Shown: positions 9,963 through 62,837 of the stretch, piece after piece
How positions within the stretch are numbered: position 1 is the first letter of the stretch
Layout of the letters: every line of letters begins with the position of its first letter
Origin: Candidatus Doudnabacteria bacterium
GTDB lineage: Bacteria > Patescibacteriota > Doudnabacteria > UBA920
Reading direction: 5' to 3'
DNA length: 64,000 bases
NCBI GenBank assembly: GCA_031291995.1
Contig: JARLHZ010000034.1
Coordinates: forward strand, 14,915-78,914
Position numbers and translations under genes: made by a program
The notes under the pieces: model-generated
The model's database searches: none
The model's input: the letters and a program-made list of their open reading frames with translations, nothing else
Told to the model about the DNA's origin: nothing

Positions 9963-10400
9963 ATGGAACATACAGCCACAAATTTAAACGAGCTTATCGC
10001 GCTATTTTTATCCGAGGCAATCCGAACCAGGCGCACTTCTATTTCCCGAGCCGCGGAAATTTCCCAGCGCGTCGTCTCGCGTCTGCCGTTTTTACGATCC
10101 GAATCGGGAGCTCTTATGATGCTTACGGAAATAGAAAAAGATTTCCAGGAGGTCAGCGTTTTAAAACAGGCCCTTCATTTTGGTTATGGGGCTTCGGACA
10201 TTAAGGTCTACGAAAGGGAAATTAAGGATTACGCCGGCAAGCTGTTTATTAGGGATATTCCGTCTTCAAACCAGTTTTTGCAGGATGCGGCCTTACCGCA
10301 GATGACTATTCAGCAGTTATGCCTAAAATATCCTGATTTTTGTATTTACCTGCAACATAACAGCGATAAAGCCCAAATGTTGGCGCAATTGGCCGTATAA
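9963..10400 (+). CDS. hypothetical protein
   Basis: 145 aa ORF. Its ATG directly follows the stop of the preceding ORF. Confidence 0.4.
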   Translation: MEHTATNLNELIALFLSEAIRTRRTSISRAAEISQRVVSRLPFLRSESGALMMLTEIEKDFQEVSVLKQALHFGYGASDIKVYEREIKDYAGKLFIRDIPSSNQFLQDAALPQMTIQQLCLKYPDFCIYLQHNSDKAQMLAQLAV

Positions 10401-10586: not shown

Positions 10587-11228
10587 ATGGAAAAAGACAA
10601 AGACAAAATTGACAACAAAATTTCCAATTTGGTGCTGATTGCCCAAATGATAGACGCGGCTGAAAAAAATATCACCTCGGCCAAACAGATGTTAAGGGAA
10701 ATGATGGGCGGACCGGCTACCAAAGCGAATTTGGCGGCGTTTTCGGAAAAAGCCCAAACACTCACCGTTTCGGAAGGCGGCAAAGTTATTGAGGGCGTAT
10801 TTGACGGGCAGAACATGGTGGGTCCGGACAAAAAGCAGTATCCGGTGCCGGCCAACTATGCCTCCAAATCCAAACTGGTAGAGGGCGACGTATTAAAGCT
10901 GACTATTGCCGATGACGGTTCGTTTATATACAAGCAGATCGGACCGGTTGATCGCAAGAAAATGCTTGGCATGCTGATGGTGGATGAAAAGGGCGACTTC
11001 AGAGTTATGGCTGAAGGCAAGCCTTACAAAGTCTTGCTGGCTTCCTTAACTTATTTTAAAGCCGAGGCCGGAGACGAAGTGACCATTGTCGTACCCCAGG
11101 AAGGCGCGACCGAGTGGGCGGCAGTCGAAAATGTTATAAAAAAAGGCTCTCATTCTTTAAATACCGATATAGAAATGGGGGAGAATAGCGGCAGTAAGGT
11201 AATTGTGGACGAAGACGAGGAGCTATAG
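10587..11228 (+). CDS. hypothetical protein with internal duplicated beta-rich segments and acidic C-terminus
   Basis: 213 aa ORF. An extended -10 TGGTATAAT lies at about 10461-10469 upstream. Confidence 0.5.
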   Translation: MEKDKDKIDNKISNLVLIAQMIDAAEKNITSAKQMLREMMGGPATKANLAAFSEKAQTLTVSEGGKVIEGVFDGQNMVGPDKKQYPVPANYASKSKLVEGDVLKLTIADDGSFIYKQIGPVDRKKMLGMLMVDEKGDFRVMAEGKPYKVLLASLTYFKAEAGDEVTIVVPQEGATEWAAVENVIKKGSHSLNTDIEMGENSGSKVIVDEDEEL

Positions 11229-51978: not shown

Positions 51979-53514
51979 TCACATTGGGGTGTCGCCAAGT
52001 GGTAAGGCAGCGCCCTTTGGAGGCGCCATTCGCAGGTTCGAATCCTGCCACCCCAGCCAATCACTTAAAACGAGATTTTTCGGACTTTCCGCGAGCAGAG
52101 AAAATGGAGACTTGAATTGATATTGTTGAACAATCTGATTTTTAAGTTTCAGGTTCCAAAGTAATTTTTTTAGCAGTTCAAACTTTTCAACATCAGTAGA
52201 TTCTAAATACTCAAAAGACGCTATTGAGGCCTGTAAAAAGGTCTTTTTTGTTAGTTCCAAAGTGAATAAGGCCTCTTCAAGCGTTTGGGTCTTGGTGTTC
52301 AAAACTTGGGTCTGAATTAATTTTGTTTCGGCCTCTAGGTTTAAAATTTGGGGCTTTAGGGCATTTGCCATACTTGGGTCAGTAGAAATTACCTGCACAA
52401 GATTTGCTAGTCGCTCTTGTGTAGTTTTAAGCTTTTTAGCCAGTTCGTCTTTTTGAAAATTGATGTTGCCGGCTTGGGCGATAGTTTTTTCCTTTGCGGC
52501 ACGATAAGCAATTTCAATATCGTGTTCGTCAAACTTAAGTTCCTGAAAAGTTTTGGCTATGAGTTCATCAATGGCTTTATCCCTTAAATATTTTTTATGT
52601 TCCAAACAATTTCCCTTGCCATTGGTGCAATAATAATAAGCGTGGCCTTTTTTTGTTGAGGCGGTAAGCAGACAGCCACAGGAATGGCAAAACATAAAAC
52701 CACGGGCAGGAAAAAAATGTTTTTGTTTTTTGGAACGGGATTTACCGGATAACACATCCTGCACAGTATCAAATAAAATTTTGCTGATAATCGGCTGATG
52801 TATGCCTTGGTAAATTTGGCCGTTGCGGCGGATAACTCCGTAGTAAAATGGATTTTGTAAAATGTGATGAAATTGGGCTTTGCTGGGTTTAAGCCCGCCT
52901 TTTGTTCTAAAGCCGTTTTGGTAAGTGATATTATTTACATCCTTAAGCGAATAGCCGCCGGTAGCATAAAGTTCAAATGCTTGTTTAATGAATACAGATT
53001 TTATTGGGTCTATTTCTTTTTTCTTGGTCGCCAAATTATCCAAATAACCAATCGGTGCGGCTCCGGGCAACTCGCCTTTTTCTAGTTTAGTTTTGTTGCC
53101 GCGCTTAACATCCTGCGACAAGTTTCTGACAAACTGGTTAGCAGTGCCAAATTCCAAGGCTAAGTGCATAACATTGTCGCTGGGGTGGTGACTACCAAAA
53201 GGAGTTATGATTTCGGAAATTATGTTCTCTTGCAGGAGGCTGATAATTTCCCCGCTGTCCCGTAAGTTCCTTGCTATTCGGTCAAGTTTCCACGCCAAAA
53301 GCTTACAACCCTGATTAGCCTTAATATACAAAACCATTTTATTGAACTCCGGACGGCCAATGGTTTTAGCGGATTTACTTTCCTGAAATATTTTATCAAT
53401 GCTCAAATTTAACTTTGCGGCCAAAGCCTTTATTTCGCCGGCTTGAGATTCCAAAGACAAAGCCTGCCGGTCTTCGGCTTCACTGGATTTTCGTAAATAA
53501 ATAATTGTTTTCAT
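51979..53514 (-). CDS. large serine recombinase (resolvase catalytic domain, recombinase domain, Zn-ribbon)
   Basis: 511 aa. N-terminal IIYLRKSSEAEDRQ…SLESQ catalytic-Ser region. Zn ribbon CHSCGC…CTNGKGNC. Coiled-coil. Its 3' end reads through the 3' half of tRNA-Gln. Confidence 0.85.
   Translation of the reverse strand: MKTIIYLRKSSEAEDRQALSLESQAGEIKALAAKLNLSIDKIFQESKSAKTIGRPEFNKMVLYIKANQGCKLLAWKLDRIARNLRDSGEIISLLQENIISEIITPFGSHHPSDNVMHLALEFGTANQFVRNLSQDVKRGNKTKLEKGELPGAAPIGYLDNLATKKKEIDPIKSVFIKQAFELYATGGYSLKDVNNITYQNGFRTKGGLKPSKAQFHHILQNPFYYGVIRRNGQIYQGIHQPIISKILFDTVQDVLSGKSRSKKQKHFFPARGFMFCHSCGCLLTASTKKGHAYYYCTNGKGNCLEHKKYLRDKAIDELIAKTFQELKFDEHDIEIAYRAAKEKTIAQAGNINFQKDELAKKLKTTQERLANLVQVISTDPSMANALKPQILNLEAETKLIQTQVLNTKTQTLEEALFTLELTKKTFLQASIASFEYLESTDVEKFELLKKLLWNLKLKNQIVQQYQFKSPFSLLAESPKNLVLSDWLGWQDSNLRMAPPKGAALPLGDTPM
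51985..52059 (+). tRNA. tRNA-Gln (anticodon UUG)
   Basis: 75 nt cloverleaf. Acceptor TGGGGTG/CACCCCA with a U1:A72 pair. D-loop AAGTGGTAA. Anticodon loop CTTTGGA. T-loop TTCGAAT. Encoded CCA. Near-identical in outline to E. coli tRNA-Gln. Confidence 0.85.
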
Positions 53515-53631: not shown

Positions 53632-53835
53632 TTAATCGAGTGTAACAGGCGGCGGCGTTGCCGCCGCGCCTCCGTTGGGGTGCGGCCGCCTCGCCGCCTG
53701 CCTCTTGGCCATTAGCAAAAACAAATCAGCCAATGCTTCGGTAGCTGAATTAGCCTCATCGTCTGACATTAATTTGTGGTGCTTATCGTTAAAATGCTGT
53801 TGCGTGTAGCTGATAAGCCCCTCGCTGAACCGCAT
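53632..53835 (-). CDS. hypothetical small protein
   Basis: 67 aa ORF adjacent to the recombinase. Its C-terminal part is encoded by a GC-rich GGCGGCGGC palindrome. Weak. Confidence 0.25.
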   Translation of the reverse strand: MRFSEGLISYTQQHFNDKHHKLMSDDEANSATEALADLFLLMAKRQAARRPHPNGGAAATPPPVTLD

Positions 53836-54089
53836 ACAAACCCCGGCGGAGAAAATATAACTTGAATCGTATGAACATAAAATAAAAACAAAAAGCTACT
53901 CCCGCTTATTGCGTAGTAGCCATTGGGCGCTAGTCCCTCTTGGGCTAGCCCACTCCCTGATTAGCTTTTACACTAACCATTTTAAGTTTAACGCTTAAAC
54001 AATTTATGTCAAGCGGATTATCCACCGCTATTTATTTTTAAGACAAAACTTGCTATAGTTTAAGTATAATTTTAACTTAAATCATTATT

Positions 54090-54611
54090 ATGAAAAAAAT
54101 ACTCTTTGCTTTGCCGTTTATATTATTATTAGCGTCAGGGTGTAGTTCTGAAAATAATCAAACCTCTCAAAGTTTACCAACAGCCAGTAATTCTAGTCCG
54201 CAATTTACTACCACGACCGTTGCGGATATGGTGCAGGGAGGGATGGAACATACCCCCACTTTGGTCGAGACTCAAACTAAAATTCTTAAAAAAATTACTT
54301 TTTTAAATAAAAAAGCCACGCCACCCACACAAGAATATTTATTTGAAATTGGAGATAGTAAGGCAGTTGCCGTGTTTGATGTTTCAAAATTTTCACAATT
54401 ATACTCACAATTCAACGCCGGAAATTCCGTAGTTGTCCGAGGGGCTTTCGGAAGTTTTAGCTGTGACACAGATTCAATGGCCGGGGACGCAGGCATTACG
54501 TATCTTTGCAAGACATTAAACACTACACAAATTTTTATTCCTTGGGTTGTTGCTATTGCTCCAGACCCAACGCTTGGAAATAAAAATCCAGTAGAAAAAA
54601 TCACTCAATAA
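54090..54611 (+). CDS. hypothetical lipoprotein
   Basis: 173 aa. Signal peptide plus lipobox LLLASGC. AT-rich. Confidence 0.55.
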   Translation: MKKILFALPFILLLASGCSSENNQTSQSLPTASNSSPQFTTTTVADMVQGGMEHTPTLVETQTKILKKITFLNKKATPPTQEYLFEIGDSKAVAVFDVSKFSQLYSQFNAGNSVVVRGAFGSFSCDTDSMAGDAGITYLCKTLNTTQIFIPWVVAIAPDPTLGNKNPVEKITQ

Positions 54612-54612
54612 T

Positions 54613-55203
54613 ATGGATAAAAATCTTAAAAATTCTTTGCTATTCGGCGCTGCAACGGGCGGTCTTTTTGCTCTTTTTCGTAACGCTGGAAATAAACAAA
54701 AATTAAGCGACTTACAGCTTAAAGCAGTTAATGACCTTAGAGACGCTTTTGCTCAGTTGGTAGGTTCGCTTAATGGAAACATAGCACTCGCTCCAATATT
54801 AACAAGCGTTAAAGAATTTGAGGTTCAAAAACGGTATCAGCAAATAGTAATTTTTCTAGAAAAAAATATACAGAAAGACGCCGAAAATCTTGGTTTGGTA
54901 AAAAGTTTTAAAAGCAGGCTTCAATATGTTTTAAGCGGCAGATTTACTGAGGAAAAAAATAATGCTAAAGCCCACCAAACCCAAGCATTTTTTGTTCCTT
55001 TTAGAGAATTACCAGCTTTGCTTGAAACCCTGCTTGAAAAGCACACACAGATTTTTCGCTTAATGCAAAAAGGATTTGGTTATATGGAAACAGAAGGGCT
55101 TAAAGATTTTAAGCCAGAGGATAGTACGCTCTTAAAATCATACGTAAGCCAATTTCAGGCGTTAGACAAACAAGCAACAAGTTTACTTTCAGACTTCAAG
55201 TAA
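54613..55203 (+). CDS. hypothetical protein
   Basis: 196 aa. Its start overlaps the preceding stop (ATAATATGG). No domain recognised. Confidence 0.5.
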   Translation: MDKNLKNSLLFGAATGGLFALFRNAGNKQKLSDLQLKAVNDLRDAFAQLVGSLNGNIALAPILTSVKEFEVQKRYQQIVIFLEKNIQKDAENLGLVKSFKSRLQYVLSGRFTEEKNNAKAHQTQAFFVPFRELPALLETLLEKHTQIFRLMQKGFGYMETEGLKDFKPEDSTLLKSYVSQFQALDKQATSLLSDFK

Positions 55204-55227
55204 ACTAAAAAATAAACTGAGATTATT

Positions 55228-55776
55228 ATGCGAGGATATTTTTATTACAACTCTTTTGCGGGAAATCATTTTGATATTTCCACTTGGGTAGCCATAATTG
55301 CGGCGTTTGCTGCTATTGCCGCAGCTGTTGCTGCGTTTTGGCAAGCAAATGGGCTTAAGCTTTCCATAAAAGCTGAGACTTTATTAAAATTTATTGATAG
55401 ATTTGAATCGCAAAATTTTAAGGCAGCAAGAAAAACAGCTACCTTAGCTTGCCACACTATGCTGAAAGATAAAAATCCCGGAATAGATGTTGATGACGTT
55501 CTAGATTTTTTTGAGGACGTTTCTTTTATGGTTGAAAAGCAGGCCTTAGATGAGGAAATGGTTTGGCACGCTTTTTATCATTGGATGAGGTTATATTATC
55601 AAGCCTCCGCAACATACATAAATGAACGCAGGCAAGAAGAGCCGACGGTATGGAAATATTTTATTTGCCTGTATCCAAGATTAAATGCTTTGGAAAGAAG
55701 CAACAGTTTTGGCCAATACAAAGAAATACTGGATGACGCTGAGTTAAAAAAACAGCTAGAGGATGAATTAAACTAA
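55228..55776 (+). CDS. hypothetical single-TM protein
   Basis: 182 aa. One Ala-rich TM helix (VAIIAAFAAIAAAVAAFW), then an alpha-helical domain. Confidence 0.5.
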   Translation: MRGYFYYNSFAGNHFDISTWVAIIAAFAAIAAAVAAFWQANGLKLSIKAETLLKFIDRFESQNFKAARKTATLACHTMLKDKNPGIDVDDVLDFFEDVSFMVEKQALDEEMVWHAFYHWMRLYYQASATYINERRQEEPTVWKYFICLYPRLNALERSNSFGQYKEILDDAELKKQLEDELN

Positions 55777-55973
55777 AGCAATTTCTTTAATTTTTGTTCC
55801 AACTTGGTCAAACAAGGCCAGCCAACAATTTTGGTTCCTACAGACCTACCAACCCTTGAACCAAAGTTACAAATCTTAAGAAAATAAGAGCATGGATTTT
55901 CGTCCATGCTCTTATTTTTTTCTACATTCAGTAAAAATATGCTAAAATAAGGTCATAATTTCAATAGAATTCT

Positions 55974-56969
55974 ATGAACAAAATATATTCGGAAAAACTA
56001 AAAGTTGGAGATGAAATTAGAATTATAGCGCCTTCAAGATCGCTCGGCATTATCTCAAATAATTTAAGAGAGATTGCCAACCGCAGGCTTAGGGATTTAG
56101 CGCTTAAAGTCAGTTTTGGCAGGCACGTTGAAGAAAAAGACGAGTTTGATTCTTCCGGTATAGAATCGCGCGTTGAGGATTTGCACGAAGCGTTTGCCGA
56201 CAAAAACATCAAGGCAATTTTTACCGTCATTGGCGGGTATAATTCCAACCAGTTATTGAAGCATATTGATTGGCAATTGCTCAAAAACAATCCAAAAATA
56301 CTTTGCGGTTATTCTGATATTACGATCTTGAATAATGCCATTTACGCCAAGACCGGTTTGGTTAGCTATTACGGCCCGCATTATTCCACTTTCGGGCAGG
56401 AAAAGCACTTTGACTACACTTTGGTTTACTGTAAAAAATGTTTGTTTTTTGACGAACCGTTTGAAATTAAGCCCAGCGAAAATTGGAGTGATGATTTATG
56501 GTTTAAAGATCAAAACAACCGCACCCTCATTCCTAACGAAGGCTGGCTGATAATAAACGAAGGCGAGGCTAACGGCACTGTCCTTGGAGGTAACCTTTGC
56601 ACTTTTAATTTGCTACAAGGGACGGAATTTTTTCCAGACCTAAACGGCAGTATTTTATGTTTGGAAGACGATGACTTGCCAAAAGAAAATTCCGCTGTGG
56701 AATTTGACCGCAACCTACAGTCCTTAATTCAGCAACCAAATTTTGGAAAAGTCCAAGGTTTGGTTATTGGCAGGTTTCAAAAAGCCAGTCAAATTACGAA
56801 CGAAAAGATAAAACAAATTATAAAATCAAAAAAAGAGTTGGCCAGCATGCCCATAATTGCCAATGTCGATTTTGGCCACACCGATCCCAAAATCACCCTT
56901 CCAATTGGCGGAGAAATTCAGATTAAAGCGGATTTTCAGAATCCCCAAATAAACATAGTCAAACACTAA
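55974..56969 (+). CDS. LD-carboxypeptidase / MccF-like peptidase (MEROPS S66 family)
   Basis: 331 aa. Nucleophile context CGYSDIT. Conserved His/Glu in the C-terminal half (DFGHTD). Length and architecture match LdcA/MccF. Confidence 0.8.
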   Translation: MNKIYSEKLKVGDEIRIIAPSRSLGIISNNLREIANRRLRDLALKVSFGRHVEEKDEFDSSGIESRVEDLHEAFADKNIKAIFTVIGGYNSNQLLKHIDWQLLKNNPKILCGYSDITILNNAIYAKTGLVSYYGPHYSTFGQEKHFDYTLVYCKKCLFFDEPFEIKPSENWSDDLWFKDQNNRTLIPNEGWLIINEGEANGTVLGGNLCTFNLLQGTEFFPDLNGSILCLEDDDLPKENSAVEFDRNLQSLIQQPNFGKVQGLVIGRFQKASQITNEKIKQIIKSKKELASMPIIANVDFGHTDPKITLPIGGEIQIKADFQNPQINIVKH

Positions 56970-57062
56970 AGTTATTATTCAGGCAAAAAAATAAGGGCAT
57001 GGACAAAAAATCCAAGCTCTTTTTTTAATGATAGTCCAAGTCTTTTAAATATATGACAATAG

Positions 57063-57090: not shown

Positions 57091-57107
57091 TTTGAGCGCC
57101 ATTGCGC

Positions 57108-57560
57108 TCAGTTGATGGTGACGGGACGCAGCTCGAGGGGTTCCTGTTCGTAGGGAACGAAGAACGCTTTGGATCCCTCCACAGCTACGCCCTTTCCGGA
57201 AGTCCCGTCCGCCAAGGCGAGACCGATGTTGCAGCGGCAGCCTAATCCTGGAGTGGTGATGAGTTCGTGATACTGCTGAAAGGCCTCGCTCCACCTCTCC
57301 AGGACGATATGGTGACCGTGGTCGTCAGTGTAGACGTTGACACCCTCTTCGTGCAGGAGGCGGAGAACGGCGTTCTCCACAACCTTGCCCGAGAAGGGCT
57401 TGTCCGCATTGATTACCAGGTGAAACAGGCGGCCGGTCATCCGGGCGCCGTTCATGATGATGGTTTCCGGGTTGCCGACAACGAACTTCGTATCCGGTTG
57501 GCCGAATCGTAAATGCATTGCCAGCGTTTCCGCAATCTGTCCTTGACGTTCCGTATACAT
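57108..57560 (-). CDS. hypothetical protein (GC-rich block)
   Basis: Strong RBS AAGGAG 5 nt before ATG (MYTERQGQ…); the track opens 15 codons earlier. 150 aa. No confident family. Confidence 0.45.
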   Translation of the reverse strand: MYTERQGQIAETLAMHLRFGQPDTKFVVGNPETIIMNGARMTGRLFHLVINADKPFSGKVVENAVLRLLHEEGVNVYTDDHGHHIVLERWSEAFQQYHELITTPGLGCRCNIGLALADGTSGKGVAVEGSKAFFVPYEQEPLELRPVTIN

Positions 57561-57586
57561 AACTGCTCCTTGGTGGGTTGTCTGAC

Positions 57587-57796
57587 TTATGCCGAGTGAA
57601 CGCAAGTGCCGTCGGAGTCGTAGGCATAAACTTCAATGCCAACGCCGCGGTTGCTGTGAGCGATGTCGTCTATTTCCCCTTGGCTTAACGGTGCGTTGTA
57701 GTCGCCAATAAAGAAATCTTCGCCATGCTCGTGTCCGATGAAACGGATCTTACCATCCGGAGCCTTGGGCTCCGTATCTGACTTTCGGAATTGCAT
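57587..57796 (-). CDS. hypothetical small acidic protein
   Basis: 69 aa ORF, GC-rich. Lies between the HisRS-like gene and the 57108-57560 gene. Confidence 0.35.
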   Translation of the reverse strand: MQFRKSDTEPKAPDGKIRFIGHEHGEDFFIGDYNAPLSQGEIDDIAHSNRGVGIEVYAYDSDGTCVHSA

Positions 57797-58001
57797 GATT
57801 CCTCCCCCTTTGCAAATTTATACCGCACGTTTCAAAACATATTTATAAACTCTGTAAACCGTAAAATAATGAAAATACTACTTATTGAGAAAATGGTCTT
57901 GGTTTGAAATAATTATATACCTATTCAATAAATAAAAACAACCTGAAAAAATCAACCCGGCGCGTCCTCCTTCGCGCCGGGCGTGGTTGAAGAACAACAA
58001 C

Positions 58002-59327
58002 TTAAACCTCCTGGAGCACCTGCCCCAGGGCATTCCGGACATCGGCCTCGAAAGCGGAGCGGCATTCGAGGGCGTGGGTGAGGGTGGCTTCTTTGCCGTT
58101 GACGCAGAACGCCAACTGGCATCCACGGAGTTTGGCCTGTTCTACCGCTCCCGCGGAGGAAAGCGGGTCGTAGCTCAGGTCAACGTTGATGCCAGCATTG
58201 CGAAGCTGCTGGGCGAATCGGAAAGCCATGGCTGTACTGTCGTTATTGCCGCAGTACGCTACCAGGACTTTATCCGGAAGGACAAGCTCGGATTTGAGCA
58301 TGTCCAATTCCTTCATGACTGCAAGGATGCGGTCGAGGCCGAAGGCCATGCCGACCGCCGGTTCAGGCGGAGCGCCGAAAGCGCCCACCAGGTTGTCGAA
58401 TCGGCCGCCGCCGAGCACCGCGCCGATTGGCACGCCGGGAATCACTCCTTCCAGAATGAAACCGGTGTAATAGTCGGCGCCGCGAGCCAACGTGAGGTCG
58501 ATTCTGACGTGAGAGAGCACTTCGTCGGGCAGATAAGAGAAAATCTTCCGGAGCTCAGCGATGCCGGTTAATCCGGCCGGCTGGTCGTGAAGATTGTCTT
58601 GAAGGTGTTGAAGCATGTCTTCGAGCGAGCCGGAAATAGCGATGACGCCCATAATGCTTTCTATCAGGGCGCTGCCAACCCGGCGGCGTTTCAGGTCTTC
58701 GCGGATCCCTTCCAGGCCTGCCTTGGTCACCTTGTCGGCGTAATCCATGGCGCGTTGCACCTTGAGGATGCCGTCTTTGCCGGTGATACCGGCGCGGGCA
58801 GCAATGGCCTGGATGATCATGCGATGATTGACGCGGATGACGAACTGCCGGAAACCGAGGTCACAAAGGCCGCGGCACGCTACGGATATAATATCGGCGT
58901 CGGCCAGAAGGCTGGAGGCGCCGATGATATCCCCATCGCATTGCATGAATTCGCGGAAGTGGCCTTTGTCCGGTTTGTCATCGCGGAACACATAGCCGAA
59001 CTGATACCGCTTGTAAGGGCGGGGCAGGTCGGGATGCGAACTGGCGACGCGAGCCAGCGGTACCGTTAGGTCGTAGCGGAGAACGAGGCGGTGTTTCTTG
59101 TTGTCTTCCAGGCGGAAGATGAGCTTCTCGCCCTCGCCGTGGTGGCCGTCAAATACGACCTCGTTCTCGATGGTGGGGGTATCGTGGGGAGTGAAACCGC
59201 TCTTCTCGTAGACAGAACGGAGAATACGGATAACGTAATCACGTACCCGCATTCCAAGCCCCAGCTTATCAGTAGTGCCCGGCGGGACGGCGTTCTTAAG
59301 CCGAGACCGGGTCTGTGGATGGCCCAT
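58002..59327 (-). CDS. histidyl-tRNA synthetase-like protein (class II aaRS core plus anticodon-binding-like C-domain), paralogue 1
   Basis: 441 aa. Motif 1 RYDLTVPLAR. Motif 3 GGRFDNLVGAFG. C-terminal alpha/beta domain (VLVAYCGNND…). Confidence 0.75.
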   Translation of the reverse strand: MGHPQTRSRLKNAVPPGTTDKLGLGMRVRDYVIRILRSVYEKSGFTPHDTPTIENEVVFDGHHGEGEKLIFRLEDNKKHRLVLRYDLTVPLARVASSHPDLPRPYKRYQFGYVFRDDKPDKGHFREFMQCDGDIIGASSLLADADIISVACRGLCDLGFRQFVIRVNHRMIIQAIAARAGITGKDGILKVQRAMDYADKVTKAGLEGIREDLKRRRVGSALIESIMGVIAISGSLEDMLQHLQDNLHDQPAGLTGIAELRKIFSYLPDEVLSHVRIDLTLARGADYYTGFILEGVIPGVPIGAVLGGGRFDNLVGAFGAPPEPAVGMAFGLDRILAVMKELDMLKSELVLPDKVLVAYCGNNDSTAMAFRFAQQLRNAGINVDLSYDPLSSAGAVEQAKLRGCQLAFCVNGKEATLTHALECRSAFEADVRNALGQVLQEV

Positions 59328-60663
59328 TGTTTGCGCTCTCCTTGGCGCGGATGAGGCTAATAGCCTCTTTGGTGCTCACGTTGCTGGTTTGTCCTGTGGA
59401 CATATCCTTGAGGGAAACATAGCCGCCGGCGACTTCGTCGTCGCCGATCACGATGATGAAAGGAATTCCCAGCCGGCTGGCGTAGGTTACCTTTTTTTTC
59501 AGCTTGGCATCATCGAAGTATACGGCCGTAGGTATACCGCCTTCGCGCAACTCGGTAGCTGCCTGCAAAGGAACGCGGAGATCGGAAGTTTGCGGAATGA
59601 CCAGCACTATGGCGGGCGTTGCGGATTTGGGAGTAATGATGCCCGCTTCGCGAAGCTGGTAAAACAGCCTGGTCAGGCCAATGGAAATTCCGACGCCGGG
59701 CAACTGTTTGTTGGTATAGTACCCAGCCAGGTCGTCGTAACGTCCGCCCGAACAGACACTGCCGATGCCGGGGTAGTCATTCAGTACCGTTTCGTACACG
59801 GTGCCCGTGTAATAGTCGAGGCCGCGGGCGATTGTCAGGTCAATAGCGTAATTCTGCCCGGGAACCCCAAGCGCCGAGACGTAGGAAATCACCTTCTCCA
59901 ATTCGTCGACGCCGGTACGGAAAGTGCCGTTGCTGATCTGCATCTGCTTGAGCTGGGAGAGGATGGCGGCCGTGTCGCCTGTCAATCCGATGAACGCAAG
60001 AACTTCGCGCGCCGCATCGGGTGGCACTCCTAGACCGGCCAACTCCTGCTGAACTGCTTCCTGCCCGGCTTTCTCCAGTCTGTCGACCGAACGGAGGATG
60101 TCCGCGGCCTGGCTGGCAAGTCCGAGCGATTCGAAGAAGCCGTTGAGGATCTTGCGATTGTTGATTTTGATGGTGAAGCGAGAAAAGCCGAGCGCCGCAA
60201 AGGTTGCGTAGATGACGCTGGGAATTTCCGCGTCGTTTAGCAAACTCAAAGCGCCGTCGCCGATGATGTCGATGTCGCACTGATAGAATTCCCGGAAACG
60301 GCCTCTCTGCGGCCGCTCTCCGCGGAACACTTTTCCGATGTGGTAGCGCCGGAAAGGAAACGCGAGGTCCGGATAGTGCTGCGCTACATAGCGAGCCAAC
60401 GGAACCGTGAGATCAAACCTCAAGGCCAAATCGCTGTCGCCCTTGGTGAAGCGGTAAATCTGCTTTTCGGTCTCACCGCCCGCCTTGGCCAAAAGCACTT
60501 CGGCCAATTCGATGACGGGGGTATCTAGCGGAATGAACCCGAACCGTTCATAGCTTTTCTGGATTACTCCCAACATGCCGTTGAACAGCATTTGGTCTGC
60601 CGGGAGCAGTTCCATAAAGCCGGAAAGGATCCGGGGGGTGACTTTACTTGGGTTGTTGTTCAT
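59296..60663 (-). CDS. hisS: histidyl-tRNA synthetase-like protein, paralogue 2 (HisS or HisZ-like)
   Basis: 455 aa. RFDLTVPLARY, GGRYDDLAGYY, and a C-terminal anticodon-binding-like domain. Its 3' end overlaps paralogue 1 by 32 nt. Confidence 0.75.
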   Translation of the reverse strand: MNNNPSKVTPRILSGFMELLPADQMLFNGMLGVIQKSYERFGFIPLDTPVIELAEVLLAKAGGETEKQIYRFTKGDSDLALRFDLTVPLARYVAQHYPDLAFPFRRYHIGKVFRGERPQRGRFREFYQCDIDIIGDGALSLLNDAEIPSVIYATFAALGFSRFTIKINNRKILNGFFESLGLASQAADILRSVDRLEKAGQEAVQQELAGLGVPPDAAREVLAFIGLTGDTAAILSQLKQMQISNGTFRTGVDELEKVISYVSALGVPGQNYAIDLTIARGLDYYTGTVYETVLNDYPGIGSVCSGGRYDDLAGYYTNKQLPGVGISIGLTRLFYQLREAGIITPKSATPAIVLVIPQTSDLRVPLQAATELREGGIPTAVYFDDAKLKKKVTYASRLGIPFIIVIGDDEVAGGYVSLKDMSTGQTSNVSTKEAISLIRAKESANNGPSTDPVSA

Positions 60664-60913
60664 AATATTTGATCAATCCTCCTTCATGGTACAAACTACG
60701 GAACGACTGGCTCCATAATTCTGCCAATCGATGGTAAAGAACAAACAAGCTCATCCTTATTGCACGGATAAACTTATCGTATTACTATAAATCAATTTAG
60801 CTCATATTGTCAAGGAGATTGGGTTTGGCCAGAGAAGCCCCTGACAAAATTTTTTAACTTGATTTTATTGGATAAATAATATATATAAAAGTAGAGTAAA
60901 CTGTAAAAAAAGA

Positions 60914-60948
60914 TATCCGGGCAGATCCTAAGAGGAACTGCCCGGAAT
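60914..60948. terminator. hairpin ATCCGGGCAG…CTGCCCGGAAT (repeat of the 19164-19190 hairpin)
   Basis: Same 8 bp GC stem with a longer loop. Lies between the lyase gene end and the hisS-like start on the - strand. Confidence 0.4.
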
Positions 60949-60975
60949 ATAAAACCTTTGCCAAACGGCTCGGGT

Positions 60976-62631
60976 CTAAGTGGTCAACGCGTTGCAGACT
61001 GACTGCAGCAGACTTCCGTCTGCCAGCATGCCCTCGACTGCGTCCAACTCGGCCTTGAGATACCGGTCGTTGAACCAGGCCTGGGCGCCCTTGTCCGTTT
61101 CCTTCTGGAATACGCCGCGGATATGGCCGTAAGCCTCGCCCGTTCCGAGCCCGAGCTGCTGGAGGTTTTCCGGCAGCAAATGCTGAGTGAGGGTGATCCC
61201 TTGCGACGCCATGAACAGTTCGGCGGCAAGCACGCGACGGATGATCGGCAGTATGGAGCGAACTTTGAGAGCGCTGTTCATTCCCATGCTCACCCAGTCT
61301 TCCTGGTCTGCCGAGGTCGTGATCGAATGAGTCGAGCAGGGATTGGCCAGAAGTGCAATCTGGTTTACCAAGGAGGCAACCCCATATTGCACGATCATCA
61401 GGCCGGTATTAGCCGTATTGGGACCGGCAAGATCCGCAGGTAAACCGTAGCTTAACCTGGGAGTAGTCAGAGCGAAACCCCGCCGGTCACTGGCGCCGGC
61501 AAGCGGCGTCAGGGCTATTGCGAGGTAATCCAGCGGCGCTGCCAAAGGCTGGCCGTGAAAATTGCCGCCTGAAATGGCTATGTATTGCGCGCCGTTCTCA
61601 CCATCCTCGAACACCAGAGGATTGTCGGTTGCCGAGTTGAGTTCGACTTCGAGAATCGACTCCAGATGAGAAAGGGCTTGGTATGCCGCCGCATGAATCT
61701 GGGGCGCACAGCGGAACGAGTAAGCGTCCTGAACGCGGGGAACCTGCTTGCCGTGGCTAAACTTCTTCTGTTCATCCGGAAAGGCTACGGATCTGGCTTC
61801 TTCCGTAATTCTCCTGGATCCTTCGGTGAACTTCCTGATGCGCGCCGCAGAATGAACCTGGCCGGGTAATGGCCTGGCTTCGTGGATGCGGGCATCGAAA
61901 GCGTTCTGCTCTCCGCGAATAGCCTCCAAAGACAAGGCCGTAGCGAGATCGGCGGTTTCCAAGAGGATCCAGCCGTCCACTACCGCAAGACACGCAATCG
62001 CCGCAATGAAGTTGGCGCCGTTTGTCAGTGCCATGGCTTCTTTGGCCGCAAGCGTGAGGGGTTTGAGGCCGTGGTTTTCAAGGGCTGTTCTGGCCGGTTG
62101 AATTTCGTCCGCCACGAACATTTGGCCTTCCTCGAGGCCGATTATGCCCGCGGACATGTGAGCCAAGGGAATTAGATCTCCCGAGGCGCCCACCGACCCG
62201 AACTCAGGGACTACCGGGGTAAGCCCCAAATTCAGGCAATCGCGAAGCCTTTCAATCAGGCAAGGTCGCACGCCGGAGTGACCCTTCAAAAAGTTGTTCA
62301 GCCGAACAAGCATGGCTGCTCGGGTGACTTCGGGTGGAAGCGGGTTCCCATAGCCGCAGCAATGGGCCGGGATATAACGCATCTGGTAATCGGACAGTTC
62401 GTCCGACGGCAACACTTGGTTCTTGCGAGAGCCACAGCCGGTATTGACACCGTACATGATGTCTCCACGGATAGCGGCGGCTTCGAGTCCTTGACGGAAA
62501 CGTTCGATTTTCGCAAACGTCTCGGGGTTGATCTGAACCTCGTGATGATGTCTGGCCACGGCTATAACCTGTTCAATGGTTAAGCTGTGACCGTCTACCT
62601 CCACGATTCTCTGCGTAAGCATGGATTTCAC
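60976..62631 (-). CDS. aromatic amino-acid ammonia-lyase/aminomutase family enzyme (HAL/PAL/TAL; MIO cofactor motif Ala-Ser-Gly)
   Basis: 551 aa. GSVGASGDLIPLAH contains the MIO-forming ASG triad. The fold is colinear with HutH. Substrate specificity is not assignable by eye. Confidence 0.85.
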   Translation of the reverse strand: MKSMLTQRIVEVDGHSLTIEQVIAVARHHHEVQINPETFAKIERFRQGLEAAAIRGDIMYGVNTGCGSRKNQVLPSDELSDYQMRYIPAHCCGYGNPLPPEVTRAAMLVRLNNFLKGHSGVRPCLIERLRDCLNLGLTPVVPEFGSVGASGDLIPLAHMSAGIIGLEEGQMFVADEIQPARTALENHGLKPLTLAAKEAMALTNGANFIAAIACLAVVDGWILLETADLATALSLEAIRGEQNAFDARIHEARPLPGQVHSAARIRKFTEGSRRITEEARSVAFPDEQKKFSHGKQVPRVQDAYSFRCAPQIHAAAYQALSHLESILEVELNSATDNPLVFEDGENGAQYIAISGGNFHGQPLAAPLDYLAIALTPLAGASDRRGFALTTPRLSYGLPADLAGPNTANTGLMIVQYGVASLVNQIALLANPCSTHSITTSADQEDWVSMGMNSALKVRSILPIIRRVLAAELFMASQGITLTQHLLPENLQQLGLGTGEAYGHIRGVFQKETDKGAQAWFNDRYLKAELDAVEGMLADGSLLQSVCNALTT

Positions 62632-62837
62632 TCCTAAACCGAGATTTCAACTGTACTGAGACTTAGAACAGACAACCCAAAAATAGGTGCGTTGATGTTA
62701 TTTTTCCTCCAAATTCAAGGCAAAACAAACAACTCAACCCTTTGAGCGGTCTGGTCTGTGCTATATGCATATACCTTTTACTGACCTCCTGTCAAGATCT
62801 TAATAAAAATTGTACTTTTAATTTCGGTTTAAAAATT

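Follow-up and report, generated by a model that had tools for sequence, protein, structure and literature searches.

A compact three-gene unit on a recombinase-linked island of a Candidatus Doudnabacteria genome: possible mosaic cargo of independent genes for predicted envelope proteins

The 64,000-nucleotide stretch of contig JARLHZ010000034.1 analysed here, hereafter the window, comes from a metagenome-assembled genome (MAG) of Candidatus Doudnabacteria, which belongs to the Candidate Phyla Radiation (CPR). It contains three adjacent open reading frames (ORFs) that match locus tags P4L74_06305 to _06315 exactly: ORF1 encodes a predicted lipoprotein, ORF2 a protein of a tiny unnamed family, and ORF3 a protein assigned to DUF4760. 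In a preliminary description, made from the letters of the sequence, the three genes were put forward as an effector/immunity or abortive-infection (Abi) module. A co-evolved module of either kind is not supported by our results, as no two of the three families co-occur in any of the other loci examined by tblastn. Instead, we tentatively favour mosaic cargo, that is, one unit recently assembled from three independent accessory genes on a ~5-kb low-GC island, with moron-type envelope protection as its most plausible role.

We regard the three genes as independent because ORF1 matches only itself, the ORF2 and ORF3 families never co-occur, and homology to the closest relative of ORF3 stops at the gene boundary. 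When ORF1, ORF2 and ORF3 were compared by tblastn with 15 loci containing ORF2 or ORF3 homologues and with L036, the locus of that closest relative, every locus held one family. The L036 protein is 81% identical to ORF3 (78% at the nucleotide level), and nucleotide homology with the window, determined by blastn, starts 2 nt before the ORF3 ATG. The gene on the 5' side of this relative encodes an unrelated 114-aa membrane protein, and the gene on the 3' side is a fragment of HsdS (Methylase_S). Downstream of ORF3 in the window, a 26-nt match to the start of the L036 fragment gene is, judging from the sequence, a vestige of an earlier ORF3 neighbourhood. Since the L036 homology ends at the gene boundary and the neighbours there are different, the adjacency of ORF2 and ORF3 appears to be recent and lineage-specific. 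In addition, a census of 85 ORFs neighbouring ORF3 relatives revealed no recurrent partner, none of the ORF3 relatives examined is accompanied by an ORF2 relative, and the loci of ORF2 homologues, about ten independent contexts in all, contained no relative of ORF1 or ORF3.

Within the window the genes are tightly packed. ORF1 and ORF2 are separated by a single nucleotide (TAA at 54609-54611, T, ATG at 54613), and 24 nt lie between ORF2 and ORF3. A perfect TATAAT box stands upstream of ORF1, and a strong hairpin follows ORF3 (-25.7 kcal/mol, z = -9.75; equally stable shuffles, 0 of 200); this hairpin was also picked up as an inverted repeat (I4). Taken together, the gaps, the box as a putative promoter and the terminator suggest that ORF1-ORF3 form a single self-contained transcription unit. 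All six frames of each gene were scored with a simple log-odds model of codon use, for which 18 long ORFs of the window served as training set. The annotated frame ranks first for all three genes (ORF1, -0.003; ORF2, 0.059; ORF3, 0.085), and the remaining frames score -0.096 or lower. No Shine-Dalgarno sequence is visible before ORF1, nor is one visible for the other genes here. The region, together with its junction to the GC-rich DNA on its right, recurs in three independent Logan assemblies (7,250 nt, 0 mismatches), so the arrangement is not an assembly chimera.

The N-terminus of ORF1, MKKILFALPFILLLASGC, reads as a signal peptide with a lipobox. The lipobox pattern was fitted by eye as MKKILFALPFILLLASG-C (ASG-C), and the Pfam model LPAM_1 scores 14.8 bits, below its 20-bit cut-off. 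Past the lipobox, a tether rich in S, T, Q and N leads to a C-terminal domain of ~110 aa with two Cys. Among 5.8 billion proteins the only match to ORF1 is ORF1 itself, and nothing significant beyond the signal peptide was found in Pfam, NCBIfam, PHROGs or the sequences of the PDB. Kinship of ORF1 with the genes preceding ORF2 homologues was considered and rejected, with BLASTP E values of 0.2 or higher for the six neighbours compared. In Smith-Waterman alignments with the two best of these, 19-35 of 500 shuffles scored as high, and the others fell within the shuffle range; because six neighbours were tested, this likeness is not significant. ORF1 is probably a lineage-specific ORFan lipoprotein encoded by a real gene.

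None of the models in Pfam, NCBIfam, PADLOC and PHROGs matches ORF2. A word-indexed search recovered 11 homologues at 43-67% identity, and when 1.84 billion cluster representatives were searched exhaustively with a profile, 16 matches came back, several of them fragmentary. ORF2 founds a very small unnamed family. Its alignment shows a near-invariant N-terminus (MDKNLKNSLLFGAAVGGLFAL), the motif LQYVLSGRFTE..NNAKAH and several invariant polar residues; hydropathy and alignment together define a near-invariant, Gly-rich hydrophobic segment at aa 8-22 (SLLFGAAVGGLFAL). The AlphaFold2 model, built on a 17-sequence alignment (predicted local distance difference test, pLDDT, 83.7; predicted template modelling score, pTM, 0.79), is a bundle of long helices spanning aa 33-193 (33-53, 59-71, 75-107, 118-160 and 168-193). 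Foldseek found nothing significant for it in the PDB, where de novo designed bundles came out best (E = 0.09), nor in BFVD (best E = 0.36). Kinship between ORF2 and ORF3 was also considered, and the two proved unrelated. Separately, in one protein of the P0034 (156 aa) / P0030 entries, residues 1-35 of the ORF2 family, which make up its conserved hydrophobic N-terminus, are fused, as judged by eye, to fasciclin-like sequence. Either the gene call is chimeric, or this is a hint that the N-terminus can be used as a portable membrane/signal anchor.

The neighbours of ORF2 homologues show how the family travels. At L001-3 the homologue lies in a phage-like block with terminase and ParB-methyltransferase genes and directly follows the gene of a 387-aa transmembrane protein, and at L031 a tyrosine integrase gene is directly downstream with a terminase gene nearby. 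A GmrSD/HEC-05 defence gene (E = 5.7e-139) is located 32 nt upstream of the homologue at L010, and at one further locus an Imm_superinfect (PF14373) gene ends 8 nt before it, with T5orf172 and large serine recombinase genes downstream. The L007 homologue comes after the gene of a 101-aa protein with a C-terminal transmembrane segment and before an HTH-Fic pair. A caspase-like fragment precedes the homologue at L008, where a 189-aa transmembrane protein was tried as a hidden DUF4760 member and rejected (hhalign probability 10%). At L004 the homologue stands beside a decayed serine recombinase gene and a diversity-generating retroelement (DGR), with a PG_binding_1 protein encoded near. This DGR (RVT_1 and bAvd) has a pair of template-repeat/variable-repeat-like (TR/VR-like) sequences at 10073-10202 and 10597-10726 with 88-92% identity; the ORF2 homologue was rejected as its target, since the pair lies in a separate 318-aa gene. 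The sole housekeeping-like context is that at L006 (8001-8477), directly after gyrA, and this 158-aa copy, which lacks residues 11-47 including the hydrophobic segment, is probably decaying. These contexts show that the ORF2 family moves as a single gene among prophages, integrative elements and defence-gene neighbourhoods.

ORF3 matches Pfam DUF4760 (PF15956) with 49.7 bits, the gathering threshold being 25 (E = 5.5e-13; aa 27-148, profile positions 2-137 of 141), and a precomputed PF15956 match is present in nine of nine ORF3 homologues. It also has the architecture of this family, a short protein (~150-190 aa) in which an N-terminal transmembrane helix precedes an all-helical domain of ~140 aa. 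The transmembrane helix covers aa 19-41 and is strongly hydrophobic: Kyte-Doolittle values average 2.31 over the 19 residues from aa 19 to aa 37. In the AlphaFold2 model (pLDDT 84.8; above 90 in the domain) this segment is held within a helix at 17-59, after which the chain folds into a compact six-helix domain. According to the alignment, the C-terminal domain carries a conserved VLDFF...ALDEEMVW motif, and by the positive-inside rule the six-helix domain would face the cytoplasm. A Foldseek search of the PDB revealed no solved structure alike (best E = 3.9), and a profile search of PDB sequences was empty. On its profile match, we class ORF3 as a divergent CPR member of the uncharacterised DUF4760 family.

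The ORF3 relatives examined are each encoded by a solitary gene. They represent about 11 phyla (14 genomes), and further ones are found on a plasmid and on metagenome contigs; this matches the patchy, multi-phylum distribution of DUF4760. As one of them, in a Stellaceae alphaproteobacterium, is 52% identical and the others are scattered so widely, horizontal spread is suggested. Genes of mobile elements or of conflict systems occur near some of them: an Mrr-type endonuclease gene at L015, a restriction endonuclease gene on a Caballeronia plasmid, and at L026 a large serine recombinase gene whose product is 31% identical to the recombinase of the window. PADLOC matches among DUF4760 neighbours are mostly to generic AAA/helicase models. 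A DUF4760 protein is also listed in a gene table of a Serratia genomic island (PMC9964261).

The genes and products had been described largely as we find them. The three co-directional ORFs (lipoprotein, 196 aa, 182 aa with one transmembrane segment) lie exactly at 54090-55776, the putative signal peptide and lipobox agree with the predicted lipoprotein, and the model of ORF3, with one transmembrane helix and a six-helix domain, is in keeping with the membrane-anchored alpha-helical protein that had been proposed. ORF2 had been called a soluble alpha-helical protein; its model is indeed a helical bundle, but with a conserved hydrophobic segment at the N-terminus the protein is probably not simply soluble. 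The remark that no known family could be recognised is right for ORF2, which no library model matches, and wrong for ORF3, which belongs with DUF4760 (E = 5.5e-13). The reported overlap between the stop of ORF1 and the start of ORF2 is instead the 1-nt gap. Lack of conservation, named beforehand as a sign against a module, was found for ORF1 alone.

The functional proposal fared less well. Using Pfam, PADLOC, PHROGs and NCBIfam, we found no toxin, nuclease, Rhs, LXG, contact-dependent inhibition (CDI), delivery or immunity domain in ORF1-ORF3, and no family of PADLOC-DB v2 matched any of them at E <= 1. The suggested likeness to contact-dependent effectors is not borne out. Small co-directional genes on a mobile island, and the long-helix bundle of ORF2, do recall CDI/polymorphic toxins and ClyA-family tripartite toxins, but the toxin, delivery and immunity domains are missing, no conserved pairing is seen, and the fold matches are non-significant. 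Remote homology, which had been proposed as a check, gave no significant Foldseek match for the model of either ORF2 or ORF3. The proposed census of neighbourhoods had a divided outcome: the homologues of ORF2 and some of those of ORF3 lie in mobile or defence settings, whereas about half of the ORF3 contexts are housekeeping-like. Like the components of known defence systems, the homologues adjoin HEC-05/GmrSD, Fic/PDC-S23-like, Mrr and restriction-endonuclease genes, although the three proteins themselves match no PADLOC-DB model. Because homologues lie in neighbourhoods of this type, a conflict-related role of the individual genes stays plausible.

If the unit is mosaic cargo, each of the three proteins would act alone at the cell envelope, ORF1 on its outer face and ORF2 and ORF3 anchored in the membrane with their helical domains in the cytoplasm. 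They might be moron-type proteins that, at the membrane, shield the host or the element from phage or foreign DNA entering the cell, in the manner of superinfection exclusion. We consider this role the most plausible because of the integrase-adjacent position, the membrane architecture and the company kept by the homologues; a toxin/immunity pair is less plausible. The Ltp lipoprotein of Streptococcus phage TP-J34 and Sie2009 of lactococcal phages are prophage superinfection-exclusion envelope proteins encoded by integrase-adjacent genes. The proteins of the window resemble them in being small, in being either a lipoprotein or a membrane protein with an N-terminal anchor, and in having genes next to the integrase of an integrated element; each would likewise act alone. 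The ORF2 homologue 8 nt downstream of an Imm_superinfect gene adds to the likeness. They differ from them in having no sequence or fold similarity and, for ORF2 and ORF3, no match to a Sie or Imm family, and the island here is without phage structural genes. By analogy, then, a role as a membrane-level block to phage or foreign DNA is possible.

Several observations weigh against mosaic cargo with a protective role. ORF1-ORF3 have no match in PADLOC, NCBIfam or the functional categories of PHROGs, ORF1 matches none of the named prophage lipoprotein families including those of the Ltp type, and relatives of ORF2 and ORF3 are absent from the 50,697 deposited phage genomes of INPHARED and from IMG/VR. 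The hydrophobic segment of ORF2 is only ~15 residues long and modelled at low pLDDT, which makes its membrane anchoring no more than putative. In addition, the housekeeping-like half of the DUF4760 contexts includes FtsH, ClpB, V-ATPase, DeaD and His biosynthesis genes, and the association of the family with defence is therefore anecdotal. Finally, the tight packing of the operon is also expected of a genuine new module.

Such a module, a true three-component system newly assembled in this lineage, is unlikely in our view. ORF1 on the outer face would sense or make contact, and ORF2 and ORF3 would be a membrane effector and its partner, working in abortive infection or as toxin and immunity protein. 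The 1-nt and 24-nt gaps, a promoter-like box and strong terminator of its own, the island location and the predicted envelope location of all three products would suit this arrangement, as would the several ORF2 homologues that directly follow a membrane or secreted protein of another family (at L001-3, L007 and the Imm_superinfect locus). It is hard to reconcile with families that are never found two together elsewhere, an ORF1 unique to this genome, the end of L036 homology at the gene boundary, and the lack of a PADLOC match or recognisable toxin domain. Little credence can be given to a unit of just ORF2 and ORF3 with a long leader, in which ORF1 would be spurious. ORF1 does have no homologue anywhere and no visible Shine-Dalgarno sequence, and it scores lowest of the three genes for coding (-0.003). 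However, no Shine-Dalgarno sequence can be seen at the neighbouring genes either, the annotated frame ranks first of six all the same, signal peptide and lipobox are textbook, the TATAAT stands just 5' of the ATG, and the ORF ends 1 nt from the start of ORF2.

The proteins could also be ordinary envelope or peptidoglycan accessory proteins that work with the S66 LD-carboxypeptidase in cell-wall maintenance and have no part in conflict, which we hold to be improbable. The S66 gene adjoins, a PG_binding_1 protein is encoded near an ORF2 homologue at L004, and many DUF4760 neighbours are housekeeping genes. Yet the S66 gene has a transcription unit of its own, with a strong terminator in front of it, and no S66 gene was found beside any ORF2 or ORF3 homologue examined; the extreme rarity of ORF2 and its links to prophages and integrases are both atypical for housekeeping. 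Less credible still is a role of ORF2, by itself or jointly with its neighbours, as an alpha-helical pore-former or membrane disrupter of the ClyA/AhlC/YaxB or colicin type, serving as a toxin or as a lysis or holin-like factor of CPR phages. Entries for AhlC, ClyA, YaxB and colicin E3/E9 do appear in the Foldseek PDB list, tripartite alpha-pore-forming toxins typically have a three-gene layout, and L001-3 and L031 are phage contexts. But none of these matches is significant (E = 0.39-2.3, probability 0.1-0.5, TM-score <= 0.41; AhlC, E = 0.39 and TMq 0.30; ClyA, E = 1.9 and TMq 0.40), and because they rank among de novo designed bundles they reflect generic bundle similarity. Nor are ORF1 and ORF3 ClyA-like, and the three genes are never together elsewhere.

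The setting of the unit is that of an island, as had been described: a large serine recombinase gene, a tRNA-Gln gene and the lowest GC of the window all bear out the placement (Table 1). The 54-56 kb bins have GC contents of 0.359 and 0.353, compared with ~0.45 elsewhere and 0.57-0.59 at 58-60 kb. Of the features of an integrative island, recombinase domains and low GC are seen here. A repeat search gave no convincing att-like repeats or tRNA duplication at the island ends, so the boundaries are drawn only from composition and the recombinase. An MccF-like gene had been placed downstream of the three genes, and an S66/MccF-like gene is indeed found there; since the strong terminator stands before it, it is a separate transcription unit.

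Table 1. Features of the island and its edges (window coordinates)
Feature	Coordinates	Strand	Remarks
tRNA-Gln (UUG)	51985..52059	+	left edge of low-GC island; ARAGORN; Rfam tRNA 64.4 bits
Large serine recombinase, 511 aa	51979..53514	-	Pfam Resolvase 1.3e-17, Recombinase 7.9e-13, Zn_ribbon_recom 5.6e-6
67-aa ORF	53632..53835	-	GC 0.55; 5' of recombinase; GC-rich inverted repeat 53646-53700
Weak terminator-like hairpin with T-run	54012..54039	+	just 5' of operon; -7.3 kcal/mol, z = -2.8
Perfect TATAAT -10 box, candidate promoter	54065..54070	+	20 nt before ORF1 ATG; read off sequence
ORF1	54090..54611	+	173-aa predicted lipoprotein; ORFan
ORF2	54613..55203	+	196 aa; tiny unnamed family
ORF3	55228..55776	+	182 aa; DUF4760 (PF15956)
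26-nt putative vestige	55819..55844	+	100% to start of type I restriction-modification (R-M) S-subunit fragment gene; blastn; L036 1123-1148
Strong intrinsic terminator, looks bidirectional	55878..55921	+	closes three-gene unit; 20-bp stem
S66 LD-carboxypeptidase / MccF-like gene	55974..56969	+	Pfam Peptidase_S66 6.5e-34, S66C 4e-29; phrog_6292 5.3e-43
Terminator-like hairpin after S66 gene	56988..57026	+	-12.4 kcal/mol, z = -3.2; GC rises sharply beyond

At the left side of the island, the recombinase ORF runs into the tRNA-Gln gene, the last ~27 codons, with SDWLGWQDSNLRMAPPKGAALPLGDTPM before the stop codon, being antisense to the whole tRNA (51979-52059). Therefore, the C-terminus of the recombinase would be determined by the junction at which integration took place. 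The gene-call collection contains no record of the exact 511-aa product, and a search of the region for non-coding RNA gave the tRNA as its sole match. The 67-aa ORF upstream of the recombinase gene, with a GC content far above that of its surroundings and no family match, might be a small gene with an accessory function for the recombinase or a regulatory one. The Logan contigs of SRR23300978, SRR23300980 and SRR23300986, otherwise identical to the window, all start at position 53954, 136 nt 5' of ORF1. This shared start at 53953/53954 suggests a branch in the assembly graph, and the DNA to its left, towards the recombinase, may be variable in the population or recur elsewhere.

On the right, the S66/MccF-like gene is bracketed by 25-nt inverted repeats (55897-55921 and 56985-57009; 92% complementary; I1), which lie within the two terminator hairpins and may point either to kinship between these terminators or to a gene cassette. 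A GC-rich block (57100-62700; 0.50-0.59) directly adjoins the island with its GC of 0.35-0.39, which is unusual for an otherwise ~45% GC genome, and the contiguity of the two is confirmed by independent assembly. This block contains two tandem, slightly overlapping HisRS-like genes on the - strand (58002-59327 and 59296-60663), followed by a gene of the aromatic-lyase family.

In this study, a compact operon on a small island appears to hold genes of separate origin. The locus as it stands indicates that small recombinase-linked islands gather unrelated hypothetical membrane genes, and that operon packing by itself is no sign of a co-evolved module. A bolder proposition, which we think fairly unlikely, takes one of two forms. 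Either the ORF2 family (~16 clusters worldwide, with no fold match in the PDB or BFVD) would be a new single-gene, membrane-tethered factor of CPR mobile elements that keeps out phage or foreign DNA at the envelope level or, conversely, counters host defence, with DUF4760 a second, widespread factor of this sort, or the lipoprotein, ORF2 and ORF3 would have become linked in this lineage as a new trans-envelope system. If ORF2 or DUF4760 proteins are envelope exclusion or defence factors, this would give a first function to a Pfam domain of unknown function found in many phyla. It would also be a rare handle on how the ultra-small bacteria of the CPR and their mobile elements handle phages.

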